64,000 bases of DNA from Candidatus Thalassarchaeaceae archaeon (GCA_030749075.1 JASMKR010000031.1:70089-134088); one strand, 5' to 3'. Shown: positions 33,877 to 44,240, counted from the stretch's first letter. A program made the numbers and translations. Notes: generated by a model from the sequence alone, not told the origin.

Positions 33877-34053
33877 AATGTCATTCTCTCATCCACAGCA
33901 CCCTTTGAACCAATCCATTATCTTGCCTCAATCACACGCTATTCCAAGACCATGGTGGTTAGCCGCCACCCCATTCTAGCCATCTATGTCCGAACGGCGC
34001 TCCATCACCATGATAAATCACTCAAGTAGGGAAAATGGTACCGAGTGGGTAAC

Positions 34054-37000
34054 ATGCGGCGCAAGCAGACTGCCCTGCTATTCTCCTTCCTGATATTATC
34101 TAGCCTCGCCTTCGTCTCTCAAACACGCCCACAGTCTCCGGTGTCTTCGACCGATCCGAACCTCGCAGAAGGCAGCGAGTCCCCTGTCACTGACCAGGAC
34201 GGAGACCTAATCCCCGATCTCTACGAAGTCATTTTCGGTGATGACTACTTGTTGGAGACTGCGAATGTAGAGATGACCATCAATGGACTCGACCCCTCAG
34301 ATGCCACCGATAACCTCACCGATAACGACGGAGATGGGCTCACCGCCCTGCAGGAGTACTGTTGGCCCTACACCATTGACAGATGTTTCGAAGAGAGGAA
34401 CAGTCTTACTGGTAAGGCACCCGAGGAGACCGTGTCTGGCCTGAGGGAATACCTCGATCCCAGAGTTTCCGATACCGATGGTGATGGCCTTCCTGACGGC
34501 TACGAAGTATATATGTGCACAATTGGAGGCCTTTTCAAGAACAACCCAAACGACCCATTGAACTCGAAGAAGATTTGGGAATGCCAATTCTTCGACCCTC
34601 TCGACCCCAGCGATCTAATTGAGGACTTCGATCGGTGTGAGGCTGACTTCAGTTGGGGATGCGGCGATGGATTCGACTTCAACGGCGACGGAACTATCGA
34701 CATTGGCGAGAGATTCACAAACGCCGAAGAGTACCTCTTTGGCACTCCTCAAGAATGGATAACGGAGCGGGATGGACTTTGGTGCTATGGACAAATCTCT
34801 GGCCTGTCTGAAGATGCTTGTCAGACACAATACGACAGACCCACTTCTAATCATGGTTGGATGGGTACTGACCCTCGATTCGCCGATTCGGACTATTATT
34901 CATGGGACGAGGTCGTGGCCGTCGAGCTCATAGTTCCCGGGGATGGAATTCCTGATGGTTGGGAGGCTCACCACGGCCTGGACCCTCGGAATGCCAGCGA
35001 TTCCGTACTCGATAGCGACTCCGATGGATGGGATGGAAATAGGGATGGCTTCATTACTCCGGATGTAACTACGTCAACGGCCCACTGGGGAGAGTCATTC
35101 AGTAACTATGAGGAATATTCCATCGACTTCGATGAGGCATCCGGGGTCAGGCCAGGCCTCAGGGGGACCAAGGTTTCTTCGGAGCAGGGGCAGGTTCTAA
35201 ACTTCGATCACTCGACTGCAATAAGCCTCTTCGATCCTGCTGTCCACTCCGTGATTGCTGACCAACCGAGGGACCGCCTCATTGTCGGTTCGAGATACGG
35301 AATAACGGCCATAGATCCGTTTAGGGGAACAACCTCCAACTTCGAGTTCCAGCCAGGGATTGAGGGATTGACGATGAGTCGCTATACGATTGGTGACTCG
35401 GACTACCTCTTACTCGGAACAAATGTGGGATTTCACACCTTCCGGATGGAGAACGGCCTCCCTATGATGGACTCAATGAAAACTCAAGAGATAGGCCCCG
35501 TTTCTACCATAATTCCCCTAAAGACCAATTCTGTTGATCTTGACCTCCTACTTTTCGGGGGCTCGAGTGCATGGAAGGCCAAGTTGGCAGTGGGGTTCGA
35601 GTCCAACTCCTCTAGTTTCGAACCCCTTCCCCTCGTTGAGCTTTCCACAATGCTCTCTCACTCCAATGCCTCAGTTACCACGGCCGCGCATGTGGAGATG
35701 TCTGGAAGAGGCCCGCTTCTCTTCATAGGTACGGATGTTGGATTACTGGGTTGGAACACTACTGATGGGTCGAACTCGGTCGGCCAACCCTGGTGGATTT
35801 TCGACATTATGAACGCAGAATATTTCGTCAATACCAATCTCTTTGACTCCACCAATGCTGCTCGGGTAAACACCATTGTGATTGGCGATGGGATCGAGGG
35901 AGAGAGCGATGTCTGGATGGGGACAAGTGGGGGTCTGCATCGGATAAACATGAACCTGATAATATCTCAACCTACAGAGGCATTCGATAATGGAAGGATG
36001 CTCAATATCGATGGCCTGCTGTCTGGAGCAAACGACGTCCATGCAATTCTTCCACTAGATGGGATGGTTGCAGTGGGGTCAAAGGATGGCACTTGGTGCC
36101 TAGAGGGGGGATCCTCGGGGATAATAGGTCCTTTTCTTAACCAAACAGAGATTCCCGGGCTCGTAACTTCAATGGTCACTTTGGACAAAGAGGGGGAGGA
36201 GTGGCTCTTCGCTGGCATCTCCCCTGGCAGATACATGAACATAGCATCCATGAACCCTCACTCTGCTGACTCTGACTTGGATGGGATGCCCGATGGGTGG
36301 GAGTTCGCTTACGGCCTAGATCCAACAGACCCCTATGACAGCCTAAGGGATCCGGACGTCGATGGAGTTTCGATTTCTTGGAGTGACGATGGGTATTACA
36401 CGAGGCAATGGAGCAACTTGGATGAGTATAGATTCATTTCAGCCACAATGGACGGATTCAACGGTACCGACCCCCGACACTCTGACTCTGATGGAGATGG
36501 TTTGAGTGATGGAGAGGAGTATTGGGGGTGGTTCTTTGACTCGACCTCATTTGAATGCCATTACCTCAACGGGGCCTATATGTGCGATCCCAACACTGGG
36601 GAGTCAGCAAGGGAGGTCCATTTGGGTGGATGGCTAGGCTCGGGGTCAGGCGGCGGTAGCGATGGACCCACTGACCCAACCAATCCAGATTCGGATGGGG
36701 ACGGAATGCCCGATGGTTGGGAGATTCGCCATAGGAGGTGGTTGGGGGATGTCTATACCGGCGGAAACAATTGGACCCTAGACCCTAGGGACCCCTCGGA
36801 TGCTATGCAGGACGCCGACGGTGACGGACTCAGCAATATCTGCGAGTACGAGTGGGCAAGACTTCACAATCAAGTCATGACATTGGGTCTGGATACTCAC
36901 GGTGAATCGAAGGAATCGGCAGCAAACTGGTTCAGTACCGATCCTAATTCAGTGGATTCCGATCACGACTCCCTCCCAGATGGCTGGGAGGCCCGCTACT

Positions 37001-39771
37001 CGTGCCACTGGCCATCTGAAAATGCCGGAATCAACCCGATGAACGGCTCTGATTTTCTGAACAATCCCGACGGTGACGGTTACGACTCCAATCATGACGG
37101 AACACTGGAATTGGAAGAATCTCTCGTCAATTGGCTCGAATACCATCTCAAATCGAAAATCCTCCTGCATAATGGTACTTCATCCGGTGAAAATTATCCA
37201 GGTAATCTGACTTCAGTCTTGCCCCACGAGTCATGGGATGGACTAGCGCCAGGTTCCTTTGGCGAGTACATTGGAAGCTACTATGAATCGTTGAATGCTG
37301 CCCTGCCGATTGATGACATAGGCACATCTGACCCTCTTCGCGCTGATTCGGACAGGGACGGGATGCCGGATGGATGGGAAGTCTACAATGCCCGATGGAG
37401 CCTCTTTGAGCAAGACTGGACGCTCAACCCCGTGAATAGCGATGACAGGCTAGGTGACCCAGACGGTGACGGAATGAACAACTGGGAGGAGTACAACGCC
37501 ATCGACGGCCAGTTGAGTGAAAGCGATGGAACTATTTCTGTACCCCAGTTTTACCTATCTGATGCAGCGGGGGCACTCTTGGAGACTCCCTGGATTGGGG
37601 CCGAATCGTCTCTGTCGTTTGGATCATTCGTCACAGAAGAGCAGAGAAACTCGACGGGATTAACTGCCGATCCAAACAACCCTGACTCAGATGGTGATGG
37701 ATTGCTTGACGGTGTCGAGTTGATTTTCACCATGTGGAACTCAACCGACAGCGTCTGGACACTCAATCCATTGGTTCCAAACGATGGGTTCTATGACTCC
37801 GACGGCGACGGTATCCGTGATTCGACTGAACTGAACCTTACTGCCAATGGTCCGGTCAATGGTGACCTTTCTCCTCCCGATGCCCCATTGTTCTGGGAGG
37901 AGGCAGATCAATTGAATCACTTAGATTCCGTGAACCGAATTTTTAGAATATTATTCAAGAAGGAAGGCAGGGCTGAGCTGGCGATGAATCAATTCTACGA
38001 TTGGCAGGAGGGACACTCTGCCAAGCCTCTTCTTTCCTCAATAATTGGAATCACCGATCCAAACGAAGTCGACACCGATCGTGATGGGATGAGCGATGGG
38101 TATGAGTATTGGTTCACCGGCTGGGATCTTGAAAACAATCGTTGGAACATGAATCCCCTGAGTGATACCGATTCAGGTTATGACTCCGACGAAGATTCCT
38201 ACGACTGCAACGAAGATGGGGAGATTTCCGATTCTGAATCCTTCGACAACCTTGCTGAGTATGACTCCAGATGGTACGGAAAGAGGCTGGCCATAGGCAG
38301 CATGCCAAACGGCACAGGAGTGGTGTCCTATGGCTCGGATGCTGTAACCGCTCAAATAGAGGAAAATGGGCTTTCGATGGAAGCTGCGTGGGGGCAACTT
38401 TACCTGCAGTTCGCCACGAAGAGCCTGTCTTCTTCAGAGAAGATGGGCCTGATCAATTCTTTCAACCCTGACAACTTCAACCATACCCTAATTGGAATTA
38501 GCGACCCAACCGACGCAGACTCCGACAGGGATGGTATGCCCGACGGCTGGGAGTTCTGCTACTCCCTATATGCCGAGGTACTCCCAGTCAATGCCTTCCG
38601 CTGGTCGTTGAACCCGATTAATCCCCTCGATGTAGACTACGACCCCGATGCCGACGGTTGGTTCGACAGGATGATTGGGGACAATCCAGCTGAGCAAGGG
38701 ACGTGGGAGAATCGCGAGTTCTCGGCTTATGCGCCCAATCAGCAGATTTCAAACGGAGTCACTGCACTGTACTTCACAAATATCATGGAGTTCCACAATG
38801 GTACAAAACCACTCGATCCAGACTCAGATAGCGACGCAATGGCAATGATTCCAGTATTCCAAGACGGCATAATGACCGATTATGTCAGGGACATGAGCCT
38901 GTCCGATGGTCTTGAGATTTTCAAGTACGGTACAAACCCTCTCGATAATGACACAGACGGCGACATGATGCCAGACTTCTACGAGCACTACCGCGGATGG
39001 AATGAGACTAATGACAATTGGTCCTCTTTCTATAAAATCGAAGTGCAATGGCAGGAAGTCACTCCAAACAACTGGAAACCCGTGGACATCTCGAAGGGCT
39101 ACATCGCCAGACCCTCACTTGGCTGGACATGGTTCACTCACGATGCCACTGATCCATCTGACGCATCACAGGACGCGGATATGGATGGTGAATGGGCCTG
39201 TTCTGGCTCTTCCTGTACATATGAGCCGTACAATAACTTCCAAGAGTACTATGCTGTCGTTAATGCCACCCTATCCTCTCCCTCAGTTGTCCGCGCCTCC
39301 TCCCTATACGACTGCTCTGGGGACACCGTCGAGGAATGGTGGCAACTGAGGGAGACGCTGTTGGGCACTTGTTCTGGCTCCAACTCACTGTCATCCAATT
39401 ACTTGAGAATGAACAGAATCAACAATCAGGATTCACTCTACGCATTGATTATCGACGATAACGATGTTGACTACGAGATCGTCAACACGAGTGATGACAT
39501 CATCTTCGTCAATGGTGCTTGGACGGATGAATTTAATCGATTGGCAGGAGATAGATACCACCTGCCTAACGTCGGACTCGGAGAGAATCCCTATGGTTGG
39601 TGGTACCTGGATATCGACGGCGATCTCATTGCAGATGGGACCGACCCGACGAACTGGGACACCGATGGCGATTGGTTGAACGATTTCTTTGAGATAGATG
39701 ATGACCTATTGGATGGGGTGAGGGGAAACAGCGGTTCCCCCATCAGGTACGACGATCGCACTACCTCATGA
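34054..39771 (+). CDS. Giant (about 1,905-aa) secreted Ca-binding protein with ~22 thrombospondin-type-3-like DxDxDG..D..E repeats; no TM anchor
   Basis: Signal peptide is MRRKQTALLFSFLILSSLAFVSQTRP. Repeats include DTDGDGLPDGYE, DSDGDGMPDGWE, DSDRDGMPDGWE, DADGDGLSNICE and others spread over the whole protein. There is no C-terminal hydrophobic helix. The track ORF begins at a GTG at 34045. Confidence 0.75.
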   Translation: MRRKQTALLFSFLILSSLAFVSQTRPQSPVSSTDPNLAEGSESPVTDQDGDLIPDLYEVIFGDDYLLETANVEMTINGLDPSDATDNLTDNDGDGLTALQEYCWPYTIDRCFEERNSLTGKAPEETVSGLREYLDPRVSDTDGDGLPDGYEVYMCTIGGLFKNNPNDPLNSKKIWECQFFDPLDPSDLIEDFDRCEADFSWGCGDGFDFNGDGTIDIGERFTNAEEYLFGTPQEWITERDGLWCYGQISGLSEDACQTQYDRPTSNHGWMGTDPRFADSDYYSWDEVVAVELIVPGDGIPDGWEAHHGLDPRNASDSVLDSDSDGWDGNRDGFITPDVTTSTAHWGESFSNYEEYSIDFDEASGVRPGLRGTKVSSEQGQVLNFDHSTAISLFDPAVHSVIADQPRDRLIVGSRYGITAIDPFRGTTSNFEFQPGIEGLTMSRYTIGDSDYLLLGTNVGFHTFRMENGLPMMDSMKTQEIGPVSTIIPLKTNSVDLDLLLFGGSSAWKAKLAVGFESNSSSFEPLPLVELSTMLSHSNASVTTAAHVEMSGRGPLLFIGTDVGLLGWNTTDGSNSVGQPWWIFDIMNAEYFVNTNLFDSTNAARVNTIVIGDGIEGESDVWMGTSGGLHRINMNLIISQPTEAFDNGRMLNIDGLLSGANDVHAILPLDGMVAVGSKDGTWCLEGGSSGIIGPFLNQTEIPGLVTSMVTLDKEGEEWLFAGISPGRYMNIASMNPHSADSDLDGMPDGWEFAYGLDPTDPYDSLRDPDVDGVSISWSDDGYYTRQWSNLDEYRFISATMDGFNGTDPRHSDSDGDGLSDGEEYWGWFFDSTSFECHYLNGAYMCDPNTGESAREVHLGGWLGSGSGGGSDGPTDPTNPDSDGDGMPDGWEIRHRRWLGDVYTGGNNWTLDPRDPSDAMQDADGDGLSNICEYEWARLHNQVMTLGLDTHGESKESAANWFSTDPNSVDSDHDSLPDGWEARYSCHWPSENAGINPMNGSDFLNNPDGDGYDSNHDGTLELEESLVNWLEYHLKSKILLHNGTSSGENYPGNLTSVLPHESWDGLAPGSFGEYIGSYYESLNAALPIDDIGTSDPLRADSDRDGMPDGWEVYNARWSLFEQDWTLNPVNSDDRLGDPDGDGMNNWEEYNAIDGQLSESDGTISVPQFYLSDAAGALLETPWIGAESSLSFGSFVTEEQRNSTGLTADPNNPDSDGDGLLDGVELIFTMWNSTDSVWTLNPLVPNDGFYDSDGDGIRDSTELNLTANGPVNGDLSPPDAPLFWEEADQLNHLDSVNRIFRILFKKEGRAELAMNQFYDWQEGHSAKPLLSSIIGITDPNEVDTDRDGMSDGYEYWFTGWDLENNRWNMNPLSDTDSGYDSDEDSYDCNEDGEISDSESFDNLAEYDSRWYGKRLAIGSMPNGTGVVSYGSDAVTAQIEENGLSMEAAWGQLYLQFATKSLSSSEKMGLINSFNPDNFNHTLIGISDPTDADSDRDGMPDGWEFCYSLYAEVLPVNAFRWSLNPINPLDVDYDPDADGWFDRMIGDNPAEQGTWENREFSAYAPNQQISNGVTALYFTNIMEFHNGTKPLDPDSDSDAMAMIPVFQDGIMTDYVRDMSLSDGLEIFKYGTNPLDNDTDGDMMPDFYEHYRGWNETNDNWSSFYKIEVQWQEVTPNNWKPVDISKGYIARPSLGWTWFTHDATDPSDASQDADMDGEWACSGSSCTYEPYNNFQEYYAVVNATLSSPSVVRASSLYDCSGDTVEEWWQLRETLLGTCSGSNSLSSNYLRMNRINNQDSLYALIIDDNDVDYEIVNTSDDIIFVNGAWTDEFNRLAGDRYHLPNVGLGENPYGWWYLDIDGDLIADGTDPTNWDTDGDWLNDFFEIDDDLLDGVRGNSGSPIRYDDRTTS

Positions 39772-40280
39772 CCTCAATCAGTTATGTGCCCAAGCCCAAT
39801 CGAGGGACCATGGTGGGCGAAGACGGGATACCGGCCCCCGACTCGCCCGTAGAGGACAAACTAATCTTCCTGCAAGAGAATATGGTTGGTTTTGTAAGCC
39901 AGTATAGCCTTCCCGCCATCGAAATTGCGCTCGTCCTCTCCAAGTACCTAAGAATCTTGACCGAATCCCTAGTTGAGCATGCAAATACCCATCTCGAGAC
40001 CATCCCGGAAGACCTTCTACGAGCAAGACACCTCGAACCACTCCCTATCGCCTCCGCTCTTTCCGAATTTCCCCTAGAAGCACTCATCTACAGGGTGGAC
40101 CGGGATAGGATGGACATATTAGATACCATTCTGAGAACCTCAATCAACAAGACCGAACTACCATTTCCCCCAGCCATAACACTCTTGAGGGAGTGGGAGG
40201 AAATCGTCCGAGCCCAACTATCGAGTGCAACAACCCCAGGTCACCTGTTCAGTCCCTTGGAGTTACCCAATGGATTCTAG
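39768..40280 (+). CDS. Hypothetical protein (170 aa), translationally coupled (ATGA overlap) to the TSP3-repeat giant gene
   Basis: Its ATG overlaps the stop of the preceding gene (ctcATGAcc). It has no TM segment or recognisable motif. Confidence 0.4.
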   Translation: MTSISYVPKPNRGTMVGEDGIPAPDSPVEDKLIFLQENMVGFVSQYSLPAIEIALVLSKYLRILTESLVEHANTHLETIPEDLLRARHLEPLPIASALSEFPLEALIYRVDRDRMDILDTILRTSINKTELPFPPAITLLREWEEIVRAQLSSATTPGHLFSPLELPNGF

Positions 40281-40628
40281 ACTCTCCCTTGTCTCGGCCG
40301 ATGCCACTATTCCACTCGAGACCCACCATGCGTCTGCAATCGACCAGAAGTAAAGAACGGGCCATAGCACGAGAGACAATATCAGTGGGAATTGAATCAA
40401 GAACCACTCCCCTCCCTTCCTATGCTCCCGATTGAAGTGCTGTCCGAGGAATAGGAGAGGAACGAGGGATATAGCGACTGCGAATAGGGGTCGGACAGCT
40501 CCCCAGGGGCCAATGCCTCCGCTCAACTCGTGCCAGATGACCGAAAGCACGCCAAGGGGACTCGCTCTCGACTCATCTTCGGGTTCGAGTTGAACCACAT
40601 ACTCCTCGCCCACGATGCTCGACTCCAT
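40263..40628 (-). CDS. Hypothetical small membrane protein (121 aa, 2-3 TM helices)
   Basis: Hydrophobic segments are LFAVAISLVPLLFLG and LIQFPLILSLVLWPVLYFW. It has no motif and is a weak call. Confidence 0.3.
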   Translation of the reverse strand: MESSIVGEEYVVQLEPEDESRASPLGVLSVIWHELSGGIGPWGAVRPLFAVAISLVPLLFLGQHFNREHRKGGEWFLIQFPLILSLVLWPVLYFWSIADAWWVSSGIVASAETRESLESIG

Positions 40629-40699
40629 TCGTCACGGAAGAATATGACGACCCCTAGTACTATAGAAAAGGCGAACTAGATGCGGACCGTGGGGTTGCC

Positions 40700-41689
40700 A
40701 TGGCCCTACCAAGGCTACTGCTGACGGGCTTCACCCCTTTCTCAAAGCATGCAGAAAACATTTCTCAAGATATCATTGACGCAATCTCCACCTTTGGAAT
40801 CGAGGGCCTGGAGGTGGAGACCATGTTGCTGTCTGTTGACGAAAAAGGGTCCAGAATTACATCTGAAAAGATTTCTGCAGGTGCGGAATACACAGCAATC
40901 TTGCACCTAGGCTTCTCTCCCGAATCAGAGAACATTAGGCTTGAGAGGTTTGGCCGGAACAGGTACTGTATGCAAATCCCAGACAACTCCAGAAGGCAAA
41001 TGAAATCCGGCACAGTTGTTTCTGGCGCTCCTGAGGTTATTGCAACCAATTCTCCTGAGCACGTCATTGACGAGTCTCTGGACGATTTCGAAGGAGTATC
41101 TTGGAGTGAGGATGCCGGAGGATACGTTTGCAACGAGACCTACTACAGGACTCTTTTTGCCGTTTCGGAGTCTGAGCATCCATCCATGCCTGTGCTATTC
41201 GTGCACCTTCCAGATGAAGGAAAAATTCCAATTAGTGTGCAGGTTTCATTGGTCCGAAGAATATCTCGATGCCTGTGCATAAGGCCACATTTCGAAGTCG
41301 TATCGGCGCTAGTTTTCGATGATAGGCACAGGGTACTTGCTTGCCGAAGGGCCCGTGGCGACAAGTGGGCAGGGATGTGGGAGTTTCCAGGAGGTAAGAT
41401 CGAAGATCAAGAGTCTTCAAGAGATGCTATAATCAGGGAGGTCAGGGAGGAGCTACAAGTTTCAGTCGACCCATCACACGTAGTTTCAGAGATTAGACAT
41501 AGTTACGATGACAGGGACGTATCACTGCATCTTTGGTTTTGCGGGGTTGTTTCACCCGAGGCCGTCATTCCGACTGAGCACGACGAGGTTAGATGGCTTT
41601 CTAGGGAAGAACTACTCGAAGTCGAATGGCTTCCAGCAGACTTTCCAGTTGTTGAGTCATGGTTCGTGAACGGCCTACCGGCCCCTTAA
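40700..41689 (+). CDS. pcp: Fusion protein: pyroglutamyl-peptidase I (peptidase C15) N-terminal domain + NUDIX (MutT-like) hydrolase C-terminal domain
   Basis: The PCP part has LLTGFTPF, a catalytic Glu in LERFGRN, Cys in AGGYVCNETYY (nt ~41119-41139) and His in LFVHLP. The NUDIX box is GMWEFPGGKIEDQESSRDAIIREVREELQV (nt ~41374-41460). Confidence 0.75.
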   Translation: MALPRLLLTGFTPFSKHAENISQDIIDAISTFGIEGLEVETMLLSVDEKGSRITSEKISAGAEYTAILHLGFSPESENIRLERFGRNRYCMQIPDNSRRQMKSGTVVSGAPEVIATNSPEHVIDESLDDFEGVSWSEDAGGYVCNETYYRTLFAVSESEHPSMPVLFVHLPDEGKIPISVQVSLVRRISRCLCIRPHFEVVSALVFDDRHRVLACRRARGDKWAGMWEFPGGKIEDQESSRDAIIREVREELQVSVDPSHVVSEIRHSYDDRDVSLHLWFCGVVSPEAVIPTEHDEVRWLSREELLEVEWLPADFPVVESWFVNGLPAP

Positions 41690-42201
41690 TCCATGTCTCC
41701 TATGGTCTTGCGCCCCTTCGAGTCGAACCATTCAGACGGATCTCCTTCTTCGGTCATTGCAAGCTCGTCACCGGTGCTCCTAGGGATTGAGCCCCTACCA
41801 CTATGCCATGTCTGCTGTTCCAGCCACGAACCCAAGTCCCTGCCCTCGACCATCACCTCCATCGTTCCACCTAGGGGGTAATCTTTCAACACGAACGAGA
41901 CTTTTCCGGCTAGTGCAGATTGCCTTGAGAGAGAGAAGACAGTGGACTTGCCTATCAAAGACATAGCCATAGCATCGAGGGCGGTATCTAGAACTCTCTG
42001 TTCCCTAACAATCTTTAGGACGGTGTCCAGCGAGGTAGCCGGCCCCTTCAATTCCAATTCCCCCCTAGTGCAAGGGAAACAGCACCCGTCTGGATTTGCC
42101 TCCGGACTCCAATCGGGAAATAGCGCTTGTACTGACTTTGTTACTTTCTTTGGGTCCTCGTGGGGACGAACCACAGTGGAGACAGATACAGCGGGGTCCA
42201 T
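41686..42201 (-). CDS. Hypothetical protein (171 aa)
   Basis: ORF without overlap with better genes. It overlaps the pcp-nudix stop by 4 nt. I did not recognise a family. Confidence 0.4.
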   Translation of the reverse strand: MDPAVSVSTVVRPHEDPKKVTKSVQALFPDWSPEANPDGCCFPCTRGELELKGPATSLDTVLKIVREQRVLDTALDAMAMSLIGKSTVFSLSRQSALAGKVSFVLKDYPLGGTMEVMVEGRDLGSWLEQQTWHSGRGSIPRSTGDELAMTEEGDPSEWFDSKGRKTIGDMD

Positions 42202-42294: not shown

Positions 42295-43062
42295 ATGGTG
42301 CAACGAACGACTGCAATGTCCTTCGCTCTCGTAGCATCGCCGAGCGTCTGCCTGCTCGCTATCAGGTTGGGTATTCCCACTTTCAGCGAGGCGCTATCCA
42401 ACGACCTCGTCGCCGAGTCGGGGTTGCACCTATTCGCTATATTGATTGGTGTTGTGATGGTGAACAGATACAGGTCCGTCGAGGATCATGAATACCATCG
42501 TTCCAAGGCAATTGAGCGACTCACCAAGACCTATCGTAACGAGGACAAGGGCCTATGGGAGAAGGGGGATGCAGCGATTCAGAGGCTGGAAGCCAAGGCG
42601 TATGCCGACTTCAAGGGAAAGAGGGCGGTGCTTGCTAGGGAGAAGATGCGGAGCAATATCGGCGTGCTCAACAAGGAAGCTAAGGAAGTCGAGGCTCCAC
42701 AACACGAAGATGGTAGATATTCCATCCGAATTGACGGGGTTGAACAGCATGTAGATCCTCCTCCAGAAATAGACAATCGCAGACCACTCTTAACGAGGAT
42801 TGCCGAACTCATTGGACAAACCGTGGACCGAACCGCCTCCAAGAGGCTAGCCACGTCCTCTCCGGTGGAAAAAGCTACCAAGCCTGTCTTTGCTGTTCCA
42901 AGTAAGACAACGCCTGATTTCGATCCCAAGTGGGACGTACCCGAGGAAGTCCGAGAGAAGGAACCTCCTGTCCATTGCAACGACTGCGGTTCATTCAATC
43001 GACCCGAGGTCAACTATTGCTCCTCGTGCGGCTCATTCATCTCTGAAGCGGGGAACGGTTGA
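42295..43062 (+). CDS. Membrane protein with N-terminal TM helices and C-terminal CxxC...CxxC zinc ribbon
   Basis: Hydrophobic segments are SFALVASPSVCLLAIRLGI and LHLFAILIGVVMV. The C-terminus is HCNDCGSFNRPEVNYCSSCGSF. It overlaps the dnaJ start region by 4 nt. Confidence 0.45.
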   Translation: MVQRTTAMSFALVASPSVCLLAIRLGIPTFSEALSNDLVAESGLHLFAILIGVVMVNRYRSVEDHEYHRSKAIERLTKTYRNEDKGLWEKGDAAIQRLEAKAYADFKGKRAVLAREKMRSNIGVLNKEAKEVEAPQHEDGRYSIRIDGVEQHVDPPPEIDNRRPLLTRIAELIGQTVDRTASKRLATSSPVEKATKPVFAVPSKTTPDFDPKWDVPEEVREKEPPVHCNDCGSFNRPEVNYCSSCGSFISEAGNG

Positions 43063-43097
43063 TAGGACCCGGTCAGGAGCCTCGCTATGGTGAGGGG

Positions 43098-44240
43098 ATG
43101 CCTGAGAAGCGTGACTACTACAGGGTGCTCGGCATAGATAAAGCGGCCTCGGAAACGGAAATCAAGAAGGCGTTCAGGTCTCTGGCTAGAAAGCATCATC
43201 CTGACAAGAATCCCGACGATTCCGAAGCGGAAATGAAGTTCAAAGAGATTCAGGAGGCATTCGCCATTCTATCCAACCCCGAGGAGAGGAGGAAGTATGA
43301 CATGTTCGGCCACGACCGACCTGGGGGTTCGCCGTTTGGCTCTAGGGGATTCCAAGGAGTTAACATCAGTTTCGACGAACTCTTTGGAGGAGGCTTCGAG
43401 TCAATTTTCAGTCAGTTCTTCGGTGACTCCTCGAGCAGTGCTTCTCGCGGCTCCGATCTCCTAGTTCGTCACTCAGTCCCCTTTCAAGCCGTGATGGACG
43501 GAATGGAAGACGAGCTGGAGATTGATATCCTGAGGGGTTGTGAGGGCTGTGGTGGATCGGGTTCGAATAATGAGGACGGTGCACGCCCCTGTCCCTCTTG
43601 CGATGGCAGAGGAAGAATTGATGAGATTTCCATGATCGGACCATTCAGACAGAGGGTCCGCAAGGAGTGCCCTCCCTGCCGCGGCTCAGGACGAATTGTC
43701 ACCGACCCCTGTCGCGTTTGCAAGGGCGAAGGCAGGTCCTACCAAGTTATCAGGGTCAAATTCTCGGTGCATCCCGGTGTAGTCTCTGGAACACGCCTTA
43801 GGATGAGGGGACAGGGTGAGGCTGCATCCAGCCACCGAGAGCAGACTGGCGATCTGTACATCGAACTGGGGGTAGAACCGCATCCTTGGTTTGAGCGCGA
43901 CGGCCCTGACCTCCTGATGGCATTGCCATTGAGTTACGCCGACCTTGCTTTAGGGACCTCTGTCGAGATTCCGCACATTGATGCAGAAAATTTGAGAATC
44001 AAGGTCCCATCAGGATCCAAACCCGGCGAGACAATAACCATTCTAGGAAGGGGCTTGCCACGACCTAAGTCCAACTCAATGAGGGGTTCGGTGACTGCGG
44101 TTCTAAAGTTGGAAGTTCCCAGGAAGACGTCTCGATCCATGCGAAAGAGACTCAATGAGATGAGGGACGATATGGAGGGGGAACTCGATGACTTGGAGGT
44201 TCGGATCAAGAAAGAGGCTAGATTCCGTCGGAGGGGGTAA
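43098..44240 (+). CDS. dnaJ: Chaperone DnaJ (Hsp40), type I
   Basis: The J domain is DYYRVLGIDKAASETEIKKAFRSLARKHHPDKNPDD, containing HPD. There is a G/F-rich linker. Four CxxCxGxG zinc-finger repeats are present (CEGCGGSG, CPSCDGRG, CPPCRGSG, CRVCKGEG). The track ORF starts at a TTG at 43059. Confidence 0.85.
   Translation: MPEKRDYYRVLGIDKAASETEIKKAFRSLARKHHPDKNPDDSEAEMKFKEIQEAFAILSNPEERRKYDMFGHDRPGGSPFGSRGFQGVNISFDELFGGGFESIFSQFFGDSSSSASRGSDLLVRHSVPFQAVMDGMEDELEIDILRGCEGCGGSGSNNEDGARPCPSCDGRGRIDEISMIGPFRQRVRKECPPCRGSGRIVTDPCRVCKGEGRSYQVIRVKFSVHPGVVSGTRLRMRGQGEAASSHREQTGDLYIELGVEPHPWFERDGPDLLMALPLSYADLALGTSVEIPHIDAENLRIKVPSGSKPGETITILGRGLPRPKSNSMRGSVTAVLKLEVPRKTSRSMRKRLNEMRDDMEGELDDLEVRIKKEARFRRRG

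Follow-up and report, generated by a model that had tools for sequence, protein, structure and literature searches.

A lineage-wide fusion of a pyroglutamyl-peptidase I domain and a MutT-type Nudix hydrolase domain in Poseidoniales archaea

Results

A single gene joins a peptidase to a Nudix hydrolase

The stretch of DNA analyzed here, referred to below as the window, is 64 kb long (positions 1-64000) and comes from a marine Group II archaeon. It carries one real gene in which an intact pyroglutamyl peptidase is joined to an intact MutT-type Nudix enzyme; the open reading frame (ORF) on the plus strand at 40700..41689 starts with ATG, runs through 329 codons (329 aa), and ends with TAA. The gene is monocistronic, with a divergent gene on one side and a convergent gene on the other. 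The features of the locus are listed here by coordinates, strand, and description:

40700..41689, plus strand: complete pcp-nudix fusion gene, a single ORF with both Pfam domains above their gathering scores and an AlphaFold2 model at pLDDT 95 and pTM 0.84
40700..41287, plus strand: predicted pyroglutamyl-peptidase I (peptidase C15) domain, aa 1-196, from PF01470, alignment to solved pyroglutamyl peptidases (PCPs), and Foldseek
41288..41686, plus strand: predicted MutT/NudG-type Nudix hydrolase domain, aa 197-329, from PF00293, PF14815, PDB hits, and Foldseek
41390..41461, plus strand: Nudix box GGKIEDQESSRDAIIREVREELQV, aa 231-254, with catalytic residues invariant in 35 family members
40263..40628, minus strand: 121-aa predicted membrane protein, diverging from the fusion gene
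40629..40699, no strand: divergent intergenic region of 71 bp, a putative bidirectional archaeal promoter with short 5' leaders of the fusion gene and the 121-aa gene
41686..42201, minus strand: 171-aa convergent neighbor with a weak PF01877 / NCBIfam PRK00447-like match

The domain assignment was made with Pfam, as the initial annotation had suggested, and both profiles exceed their gathering scores. Peptidase_C15 (PF01470) covers aa 5-171 and profile positions 2-168 of 204 (E 1.3e-14, 55.1 bits against a gathering score of 22.7), NUDIX (PF00293) covers aa 199-317 (E 1.2e-20, 74.3 bits against 21.1), and NUDIX_4 (PF14815) matches the same protein at 67.2 bits against 35. The two weaknesses that the initial annotation had allowed for, a stop between the halves near 41,280 and a C-terminal half foreign to NUDIX models, are both absent: the NUDIX score is well over its threshold, and reading of the window ORF across 40700..41689 showed the frame to be open and unbroken around the suggested junction. 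The sizes given there for the two parts, about 195 and 135 aa, also hold, and the stand-alone relatives of the peptidase stop exactly at residue ~196. Because the earliest Met of the Nudix half (M226) lies inside the domain, the Nudix module would be producible only within the fusion.

The N-terminal half is a divergent member of peptidase family C15

The catalytic motifs of pyroglutamyl-peptidase I (PCP-I) that had been read from the sequence are all present, namely TGFTPFS (F11, F14), LERFGRN (E82), GGYVCNETYY (C144), and FVHLP (H169), with catalytic Glu82 encoded at nt 40943-40945, Cys144 at nt 41129-41131, and His169 at nt 41204-41206. The best PDB sequence matches of this half are pyrrolidone-carboxylate peptidases of archaeal and bacterial origin (1iu8, 6ltq, 2ebj, and 5z47, E ~1e-13), and E82, C144, and H169 align without gaps to their ER, CN, and H-x-P motifs. 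The Glu-Cys-His triad is unchanged in 35 fusions and 4 stand-alone relatives. Within the 35-fusion alignment, F11 and F14 are almost invariant and position 142 is Tyr or Phe in all members, as in solved PCPs; we take F11, F14, and Y142 to be the aromatic residues of the PCP pocket. Asp95, Asn96, and Arg99 are invariant in the same fusions and lie within IPDNSGR, the counterpart of IPDNxG in solved PCPs.

Comparison with classical PCP-I (MEROPS C15, PF01470, EC 3.4.19.3; 1iu8 from P. horikoshii, 2ebj from T. thermophilus, 5z48 from D. radiodurans, and 1aug from B. amyloliquefaciens) reveals a common fold (TM ~0.8), a homologous Glu-Cys-His triad, the common motifs GFxPF, IPDNxG, G-x-Y/F-x-CN, and F-x-H-x-P, and a catalytic unit of 196 aa in the fusion versus 192-220 aa in the classical enzymes. 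The differences are that the peptidase half is only 20-29% identical to solved PCPs and that classical PCPs, which assemble into dimers or tetramers, are single-domain proteins, whereas in the fusion the final peptidase helix continues straight into the Nudix domain. The NCBIfam equivalog level for PCP (TIGR00504, PRK13194, and related models) is not reached, with scores of 44-64 bits against cut-offs of 199-308 and a best comparison of 64 versus 274 bits. On these sequence comparisons, we assign the peptidase half to a divergent C15 subfamily, as a family member rather than a proven equivalog.

The C-terminal half is of the MutT/NudG type

The best PDB sequence matches of the Nudix half are MutT 5x1x (3.5e-22) and NudG/Orf135 2rrk (2.7e-19). 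The initial annotation had described a canonical Nudix box here, and the segment at aa 231-254 does follow the consensus GX5EX7REUXEEXGU, reading G232-x5-E238-x7-R246-E247-V-x-E250-E251-x-Q253-V, except at the final Gly. This last position is Gln253 in the window protein and Gln also in some close relatives (P0002, P0005), and is Gly in most members, while G231, G232, E238, R246, E247, E250, and E251 are invariant across 35 family members.

With MutT and NudG (PF00293, PF14815; 5x1x, 2rrk, E. coli MutT 1mut, and M. smegmatis MutT2 5zrc), this half has in common the Nudix fold (TM 0.78-0.87), the complete catalytic Nudix box, WEFPGGK, EH...W, and a PAD motif near the C-terminus, at 30-44% identity. 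It differs from them in not being a free-standing protein of ~130 aa and in scoring below both equivalog cut-offs, at 71.3 versus 148 bits and 70.5 versus 97.9 bits for the MutT models and 85.7 versus 156 bits for NudG/Orf135 (overall, 71-86 bits against NCBIfam cut-offs of 148-156). The top NCBIfam match of the Nudix half is PRK08999, at 102 bits. The residue aligned with Asn119 of E. coli MutT, presumably the reader of 8-oxo-G, is Asp314, which belongs to a nearly invariant LPAD motif and matches NudG Asp118. The alignment to 2rrk further pairs E228 with E33, R272 with R77, and D314 with D118 of NudG, with H267 replacing R72; E33, R72, R77, and D118 are the residues that we assume to contact the NudG substrate. 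Since Asp314 aligns with NudG Asp118, the preferred substrates may be those of NudG (pyrimidine or 2-OH-dATP) and not strictly 8-oxo-dGTP. Because the scores of both halves lie well under all NCBIfam equivalog cut-offs, we can only infer the exact substrates of each, and the assignment of the C-terminal half would extend as far as "MutT/NudG-type (d)NTP pyrophosphohydrolase."

The two domains are predicted to form one compact protein

An AlphaFold2 model computed from the 35-sequence family alignment shows one compact protein (mean pLDDT 95, pTM 0.84), in which helix 178-193 is followed, three residues on, by the Nudix strand 197-206 with no flexible linker between them. When the halves were compared with the PDB by Foldseek, the N-terminal half matched 34 PCP-I chains (E ~1e-16) with target-normalized TM of 0.76-0.83, including 0.82 to both 2ebj and 5z48, and the C-terminal half matched Nudix structures with TM of 0.87 (3r03), 0.85 (3grn), 0.78 (2rrk), and 0.86 (MutT2, 5zrh). 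The Foldseek search of the PDB returned no solved chain covering both halves, the top query-normalized TM being 0.54. The absence of a linker in the model, together with its pTM of 0.84, suggests that the geometry between the domains is fixed.

The fusion is the usual form of the gene across Poseidoniales

The initial annotation had proposed a database search for the domain pair. The pair was found in other proteins and proved to be the usual form of the gene across Poseidoniales rather than a feature unique to the window. A search of 5.8 billion proteins yielded the same Pfam pair in ~65 clusters at 90% identity, ranging from 99% to 31% identical to the window protein, and a profile search of 1.84 billion representatives yielded ~55 full-length fusion representatives at 50% identity. 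All fusion clusters with an organism label or an inspected context are Poseidoniales, from both families and with a conserved neighborhood. The source labels read "Candidatus Thalassarchaeaceae archaeon," "Candidatus Poseidoniales archaeon," "Euryarchaeota archaeon," and "Methanobacteriota archaeon." Among GTDB species representatives, at least six full-length fusion loci were found, all Poseidoniales among the matches listed, a figure that is a lower bound and not a census, as the GxWEFPGGK pattern also matches ordinary bacterial MutT genes. Poseidoniaceae and Poseidonia sp. (L005, L006) each encode the whole fusion. The most similar protein, P0001, is 99% identical to that of the window, and the closest named relative, labeled Thalassarchaeaceae, belongs to the P0002 cluster (82%), which was recovered on 13 or more contigs of separate samples. 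From this relative, the most likely source of the window is an MGIIb archaeon.

The mean pairwise identity of the halves is about equal (peptidase 39%, Nudix 38%), and no catalytic residue of either half varies among the 35 fusions, which reach as low as 32% identity; given this invariance and the equal conservation of the halves, both active sites are under purifying selection.

Public product names for these genes in GenBank, IMG, and Tara are "NUDIX domain-containing protein," "8-oxo-dGTP diphosphatase," "mutator protein MutT," and "hypothetical protein," and one JGI record (P0063) gives the names of both halves. Full-text literature searches found no description of the PCP-Nudix domain pair, in agreement with the earlier statement that such a fusion was undescribed. 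Within the papers searched, the architecture is thus undescribed; it is lineage-wide and made of two well-known enzymes, from sequences that are already public and machine-annotated.

The locus is conserved and offers no operon partner

The block around the fusion has the order giant TSP3-repeat protein, 157-170-aa protein, 121-aa gene (minus strand), fusion, ~170-aa gene (minus strand), zinc-ribbon protein (DUF7577-like), DnaJ, ~385-aa gene (minus strand), and DUF5591. It recurs in relatives whose fusion is 82% and 58% identical and is recognizable in the divergent P0235 (3.0-Mb contig), P0350, and Poseidonia L006; the neighborhood is conserved even for a member with only 210 bits against the family profile. 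P0350 had been considered as a bacterial sequence, which was rejected, as it is archaeal by synteny and tree position.

The stops of the fusion gene (plus strand) and the 171-aa gene (minus strand) overlap by 4 nt, as TTAA at 41686-41689. The convergent arrangement of the 171-aa gene is also found in L081-L088, L092, L093, and L096, while L006 and L095 carry a homologous convergent gene of 178 aa. This gene is probably a conserved syntenic partner with no functional link to the fusion. The overlap of the stops persists, as CCTTAG, in a lineage from which the Nudix module is deleted. Because the fusion gene diverges from one neighbor and converges on the other, it lacks an operon partner that would hint at a joint pathway, and Pfam and NCBIfam scans of the adjacent genes revealed no functional link from the neighbors.

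On the divergent side, the 121-aa membrane protein (40263-40628) has no Pfam or NCBIfam match. It is always the divergent partner of the fusion gene, also in Poseidoniaceae, and carries the motif FLFLGQHFNR(E/Q)HR. The 71-bp intergenic region between the two genes (ACGGAAGAATATGACGACC...ATAGAAAAGGCGAACTAGA) hardly varies between loci whose fusion proteins share only 55-82% identity, exceeding the conservation of the coding DNA; it is partly retained in L001 and not recognizable in deeper lineages. Two A/T-rich TATA-like boxes, GAATATGA and ATAGAAAAGG, lie within it, and from these boxes the region probably represents overlapping bidirectional archaeal promoters.

Several other features of the surroundings were also noted. 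A 1908-aa protein encoded at 34045-39771 (plus strand) has a signal-peptide-like N-terminus and many Asp-rich "DSDGDGxxDGxE" repeats; in its relatives a faint TSP3_bac match is seen, and the position of its gene upstream of the fusion locus is kept across Poseidoniales contigs. Downstream, a 255-aa protein encoded at 42295-43062 (plus strand) ends in a zinc ribbon (weak DUF7577 match), its gene overlapping by 4 nt the start of DnaJ (43059-44240, plus strand), and this zinc-ribbon/DnaJ pair is conserved beside the fusion locus in all inspected Poseidoniales contigs that reach that far. No tRNA genes and no Rfam families at the gathering threshold were found within the 64-kb window.

The Nudix module has been lost more than once

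Four stand-alone peptidases (P0046-P0049, 195-202 aa) are 50-55% identical to the N-terminal half, keep the triad, and terminate precisely where the peptidase domain does (...CLCxxP*). The MAG GCA_029936035.1 is one of those from which the Nudix half has been lost. The tail of P0049 (…QNEYDSGFST) resembles a remnant of the extreme C-terminus of the fusion. P0046 (L082 5001-5591) occupies the same syntenic slot as the fusion, and alignment of its DNA to a sister fusion locus and to the window displays a clean gap of ~400 nt in place of the Nudix module, with conserved peptidase sequence on one side and the conserved convergent gene on the other.

A phylogeny of each half had been proposed in order to see whether the fusion is lineage-specific. 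In neighbor-joining trees of the peptidase domain with bootstrap, the archaeal fusions and the stand-alone P0046-P0049 form one clade (79% bootstrap), apart from 25 other stand-alone peptidases, while the Nudix tree, built on 129 columns, is too poorly resolved to tell for or against a separate origin of the bacterial fusions. Inside the archaeal clade, the stand-alone forms nest at two to three positions, P0046 with the fusion P0004 (94%, first tree), P0048 with P0049 (85-87%), and P0047 separately. The simplest history consistent with these trees and alignments would begin with one fusion event, no later than the ancestor shared by the two Poseidoniales families sampled, after which the Nudix module was lost precisely and in frame on at least two occasions. 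As the peptidase triad was retained through these losses, the peptidase therefore does not need the Nudix domain. The short Nudix-only P0249 falls inside the archaeal clade; it was considered as a derivative that had lost the peptidase and was rejected, being a fragment on a 537-bp contig.

Fusions outside the archaea and other Nudix fusions

A 321-aa PCP-Nudix fusion, P0243 (L094 8001-8966), forms a singleton cluster and lies on a 170-kb contig. Its neighbors (PilZ, cNMP-binding, AI-2E transporter, SBP_bac_5, and long-form S14, with a flavodoxin-like gene immediately upstream) make up a bacterial-type context. The peptidase halves of P0243 and P0246 group with stand-alone bacterial peptidases of ~228 aa (74%), and in the poorly resolved Nudix tree their C-terminal halves join neither the archaeal fusions nor each other. 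P0243 looks like a rare independent fusion, with an ancient transfer as a possible alternative source. Matches in two stretches, such as P0245, P0258, P0263, and P0288, were considered as reverse-order Nudix-PCP fusions and rejected, being tandem Nudix-Nudix proteins. In the oomycete Thraustotheca clavata, a 512-aa protein returned by the profile search (P0230) matches Peptidase_C15 in three separate stretches, possibly as tandem domains.

MutT-like Nudix domains among the search matches are joined to HhH-GPD/MutY, GNAT, TMP-TENI, Vsr, APH, BirA, PEMT, 5-FTHF cyclo-ligase, and a second Nudix domain in tandem. Because these domains join so many unrelated partners, recurrence of a fusion is by itself weak evidence of a functional link. 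Other known MutT-domain fusions, such as the MutT-ThiE-like "Nudix family hydrolase" PRK08999, the GNAT-(d)NTP pyrophosphohydrolase, MutY (HhH-GPD plus a Nudix-like domain), and NadM-Nudix, likewise combine a Nudix module with an unrelated enzyme. Unlike in these, the partner here is a peptidase and not a nucleotide or cofactor enzyme, and the Nudix domain is C-terminal.

Discussion

We consider it probable that the protein is bifunctional and has two independent housekeeping activities, the deblocking of pyroglutamyl (pGlu) peptides and the sanitizing of nucleotides, where we infer both the substrates and the independence of the two activities. It would act as a "house-cleaning" enzyme in the cytosol of an archaeon of Marine Group II, probably one of the Thalassarchaeaceae. 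The N-terminal cysteine peptidase, through the triad Glu82-Cys144-His169, would remove N-terminal pyroglutamate from peptides, and the C-terminal Nudix pyrophosphohydrolase would convert damaged or non-canonical (d)NTPs to monophosphates and pyrophosphate, with the metal for this chemistry held by the glutamates of the Nudix box and the two active sites working on separate substrates. The fusion would have arisen once and then become fixed, its Nudix fold lying directly on the final helix of the peptidase, the gain being obligate co-expression and perhaps added stability. The initial annotation had left the choice between a functional link, for example through a hybrid substrate, and co-regulated housekeeping; the repeated loss of the Nudix module and the promiscuity of Nudix domains toward fusion partners favor the housekeeping option and speak against the link.

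The same data contain points that sit less easily with two independent activities, as a junction without a linker and a pTM of 0.84 would also be expected of a composite enzyme. Retention across the order under equal constraint on both halves, together with the bacterial-type P0243 fusion, hints at some recurrent advantage. The protein could accordingly be a coupled enzyme, that is, a rigid unit for a hybrid or sequential substrate, such as a nucleotide-linked or pGlu-capped peptide or metabolite, or one in which either domain exerts allosteric control over the other or takes over the oligomerization role of the C-terminal part of classical PCPs. The passage of helix 178-193 straight into strand 197-206, the pTM of the two-domain chain, the order-wide retention with equally conserved halves, and the second, apparently independent fusion in a bacterial-type context would all fit such a unit. 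We nevertheless regard it as unlikely, given that clean deletions have removed the Nudix module at least two times from a peptidase that retained both its triad and its place in the genome, that each half has a complete canonical active site with stand-alone enzymes as its nearest relatives, and that the bacterial fusions are singletons; moreover, we know of no substrate class that joins pGlu to a nucleoside diphosphate. A more far-reaching form of coupling, to which we give only a slim chance, is that the two active sites cooperate on an unrecognized substrate class, such as a pGlu-capped or peptide-linked nucleotide metabolite scavenged by abundant ocean archaea, or that the Nudix domain gates the peptidase upon damage to the nucleotide pool. 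Were the coupled reading true, the same selective link would lie behind the bacterial fusion that appears to be independent.

It is also conceivable, though quite improbable, that one half is catalytically dead or repurposed, the Nudix domain serving as a nucleotide-binding regulatory or stabilizing domain or the peptidase fold acting on targets other than pGlu. The scores of both halves far below the NCBIfam equivalog cut-offs, the Gln at the last Gly position of the Nudix box, and an Asp314 that aligns to MutT Asn119 and matches NudG Asp118 instead are in line with this reading. However, E238, R246, E247, E250, and E251 and the Glu/Cys/His triad are invariant across members only ~30% identical, which is not expected of pseudo-enzymes and makes a pseudo-enzyme half unlikely, and F11/F14 are nearly invariant and IPDN is conserved, its Asp and Asn invariantly so, as in solved PCPs. 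Finally, an artefact (an overlooked stop, a frameshift, or two adjacent genes joined in a chimeric assembly) has a vanishingly small probability and can be ruled out, because the same unbroken ORF recurs in dozens of independent assemblies (ENA, JGI, NCBI, Tara, and Logan), and in addition the window ORF contains no stop, the junction is in frame and conserved, and AlphaFold2 gives one compact protein.

By itself, the fusion opens no new mechanism and settles no long-standing question; its value is in improving the annotation of an abundant, uncultured archaeal order and in providing a natural experiment on how domains are fused and lost. Poseidoniales are among the most abundant planktonic archaea of the surface ocean and are known for the degradation of peptides and proteins, and because they are uncultured, the functions of their genes rest on annotation alone. 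Because most records label the gene as "NUDIX" or "8-oxo-dGTP diphosphatase" only, a predicted peptidase activity is missing from Poseidoniales metabolic reconstructions. The fusion also constitutes a lineage-diagnostic architecture with natural deletion variants, which makes it handy for asking what fused housekeeping enzymes gain.
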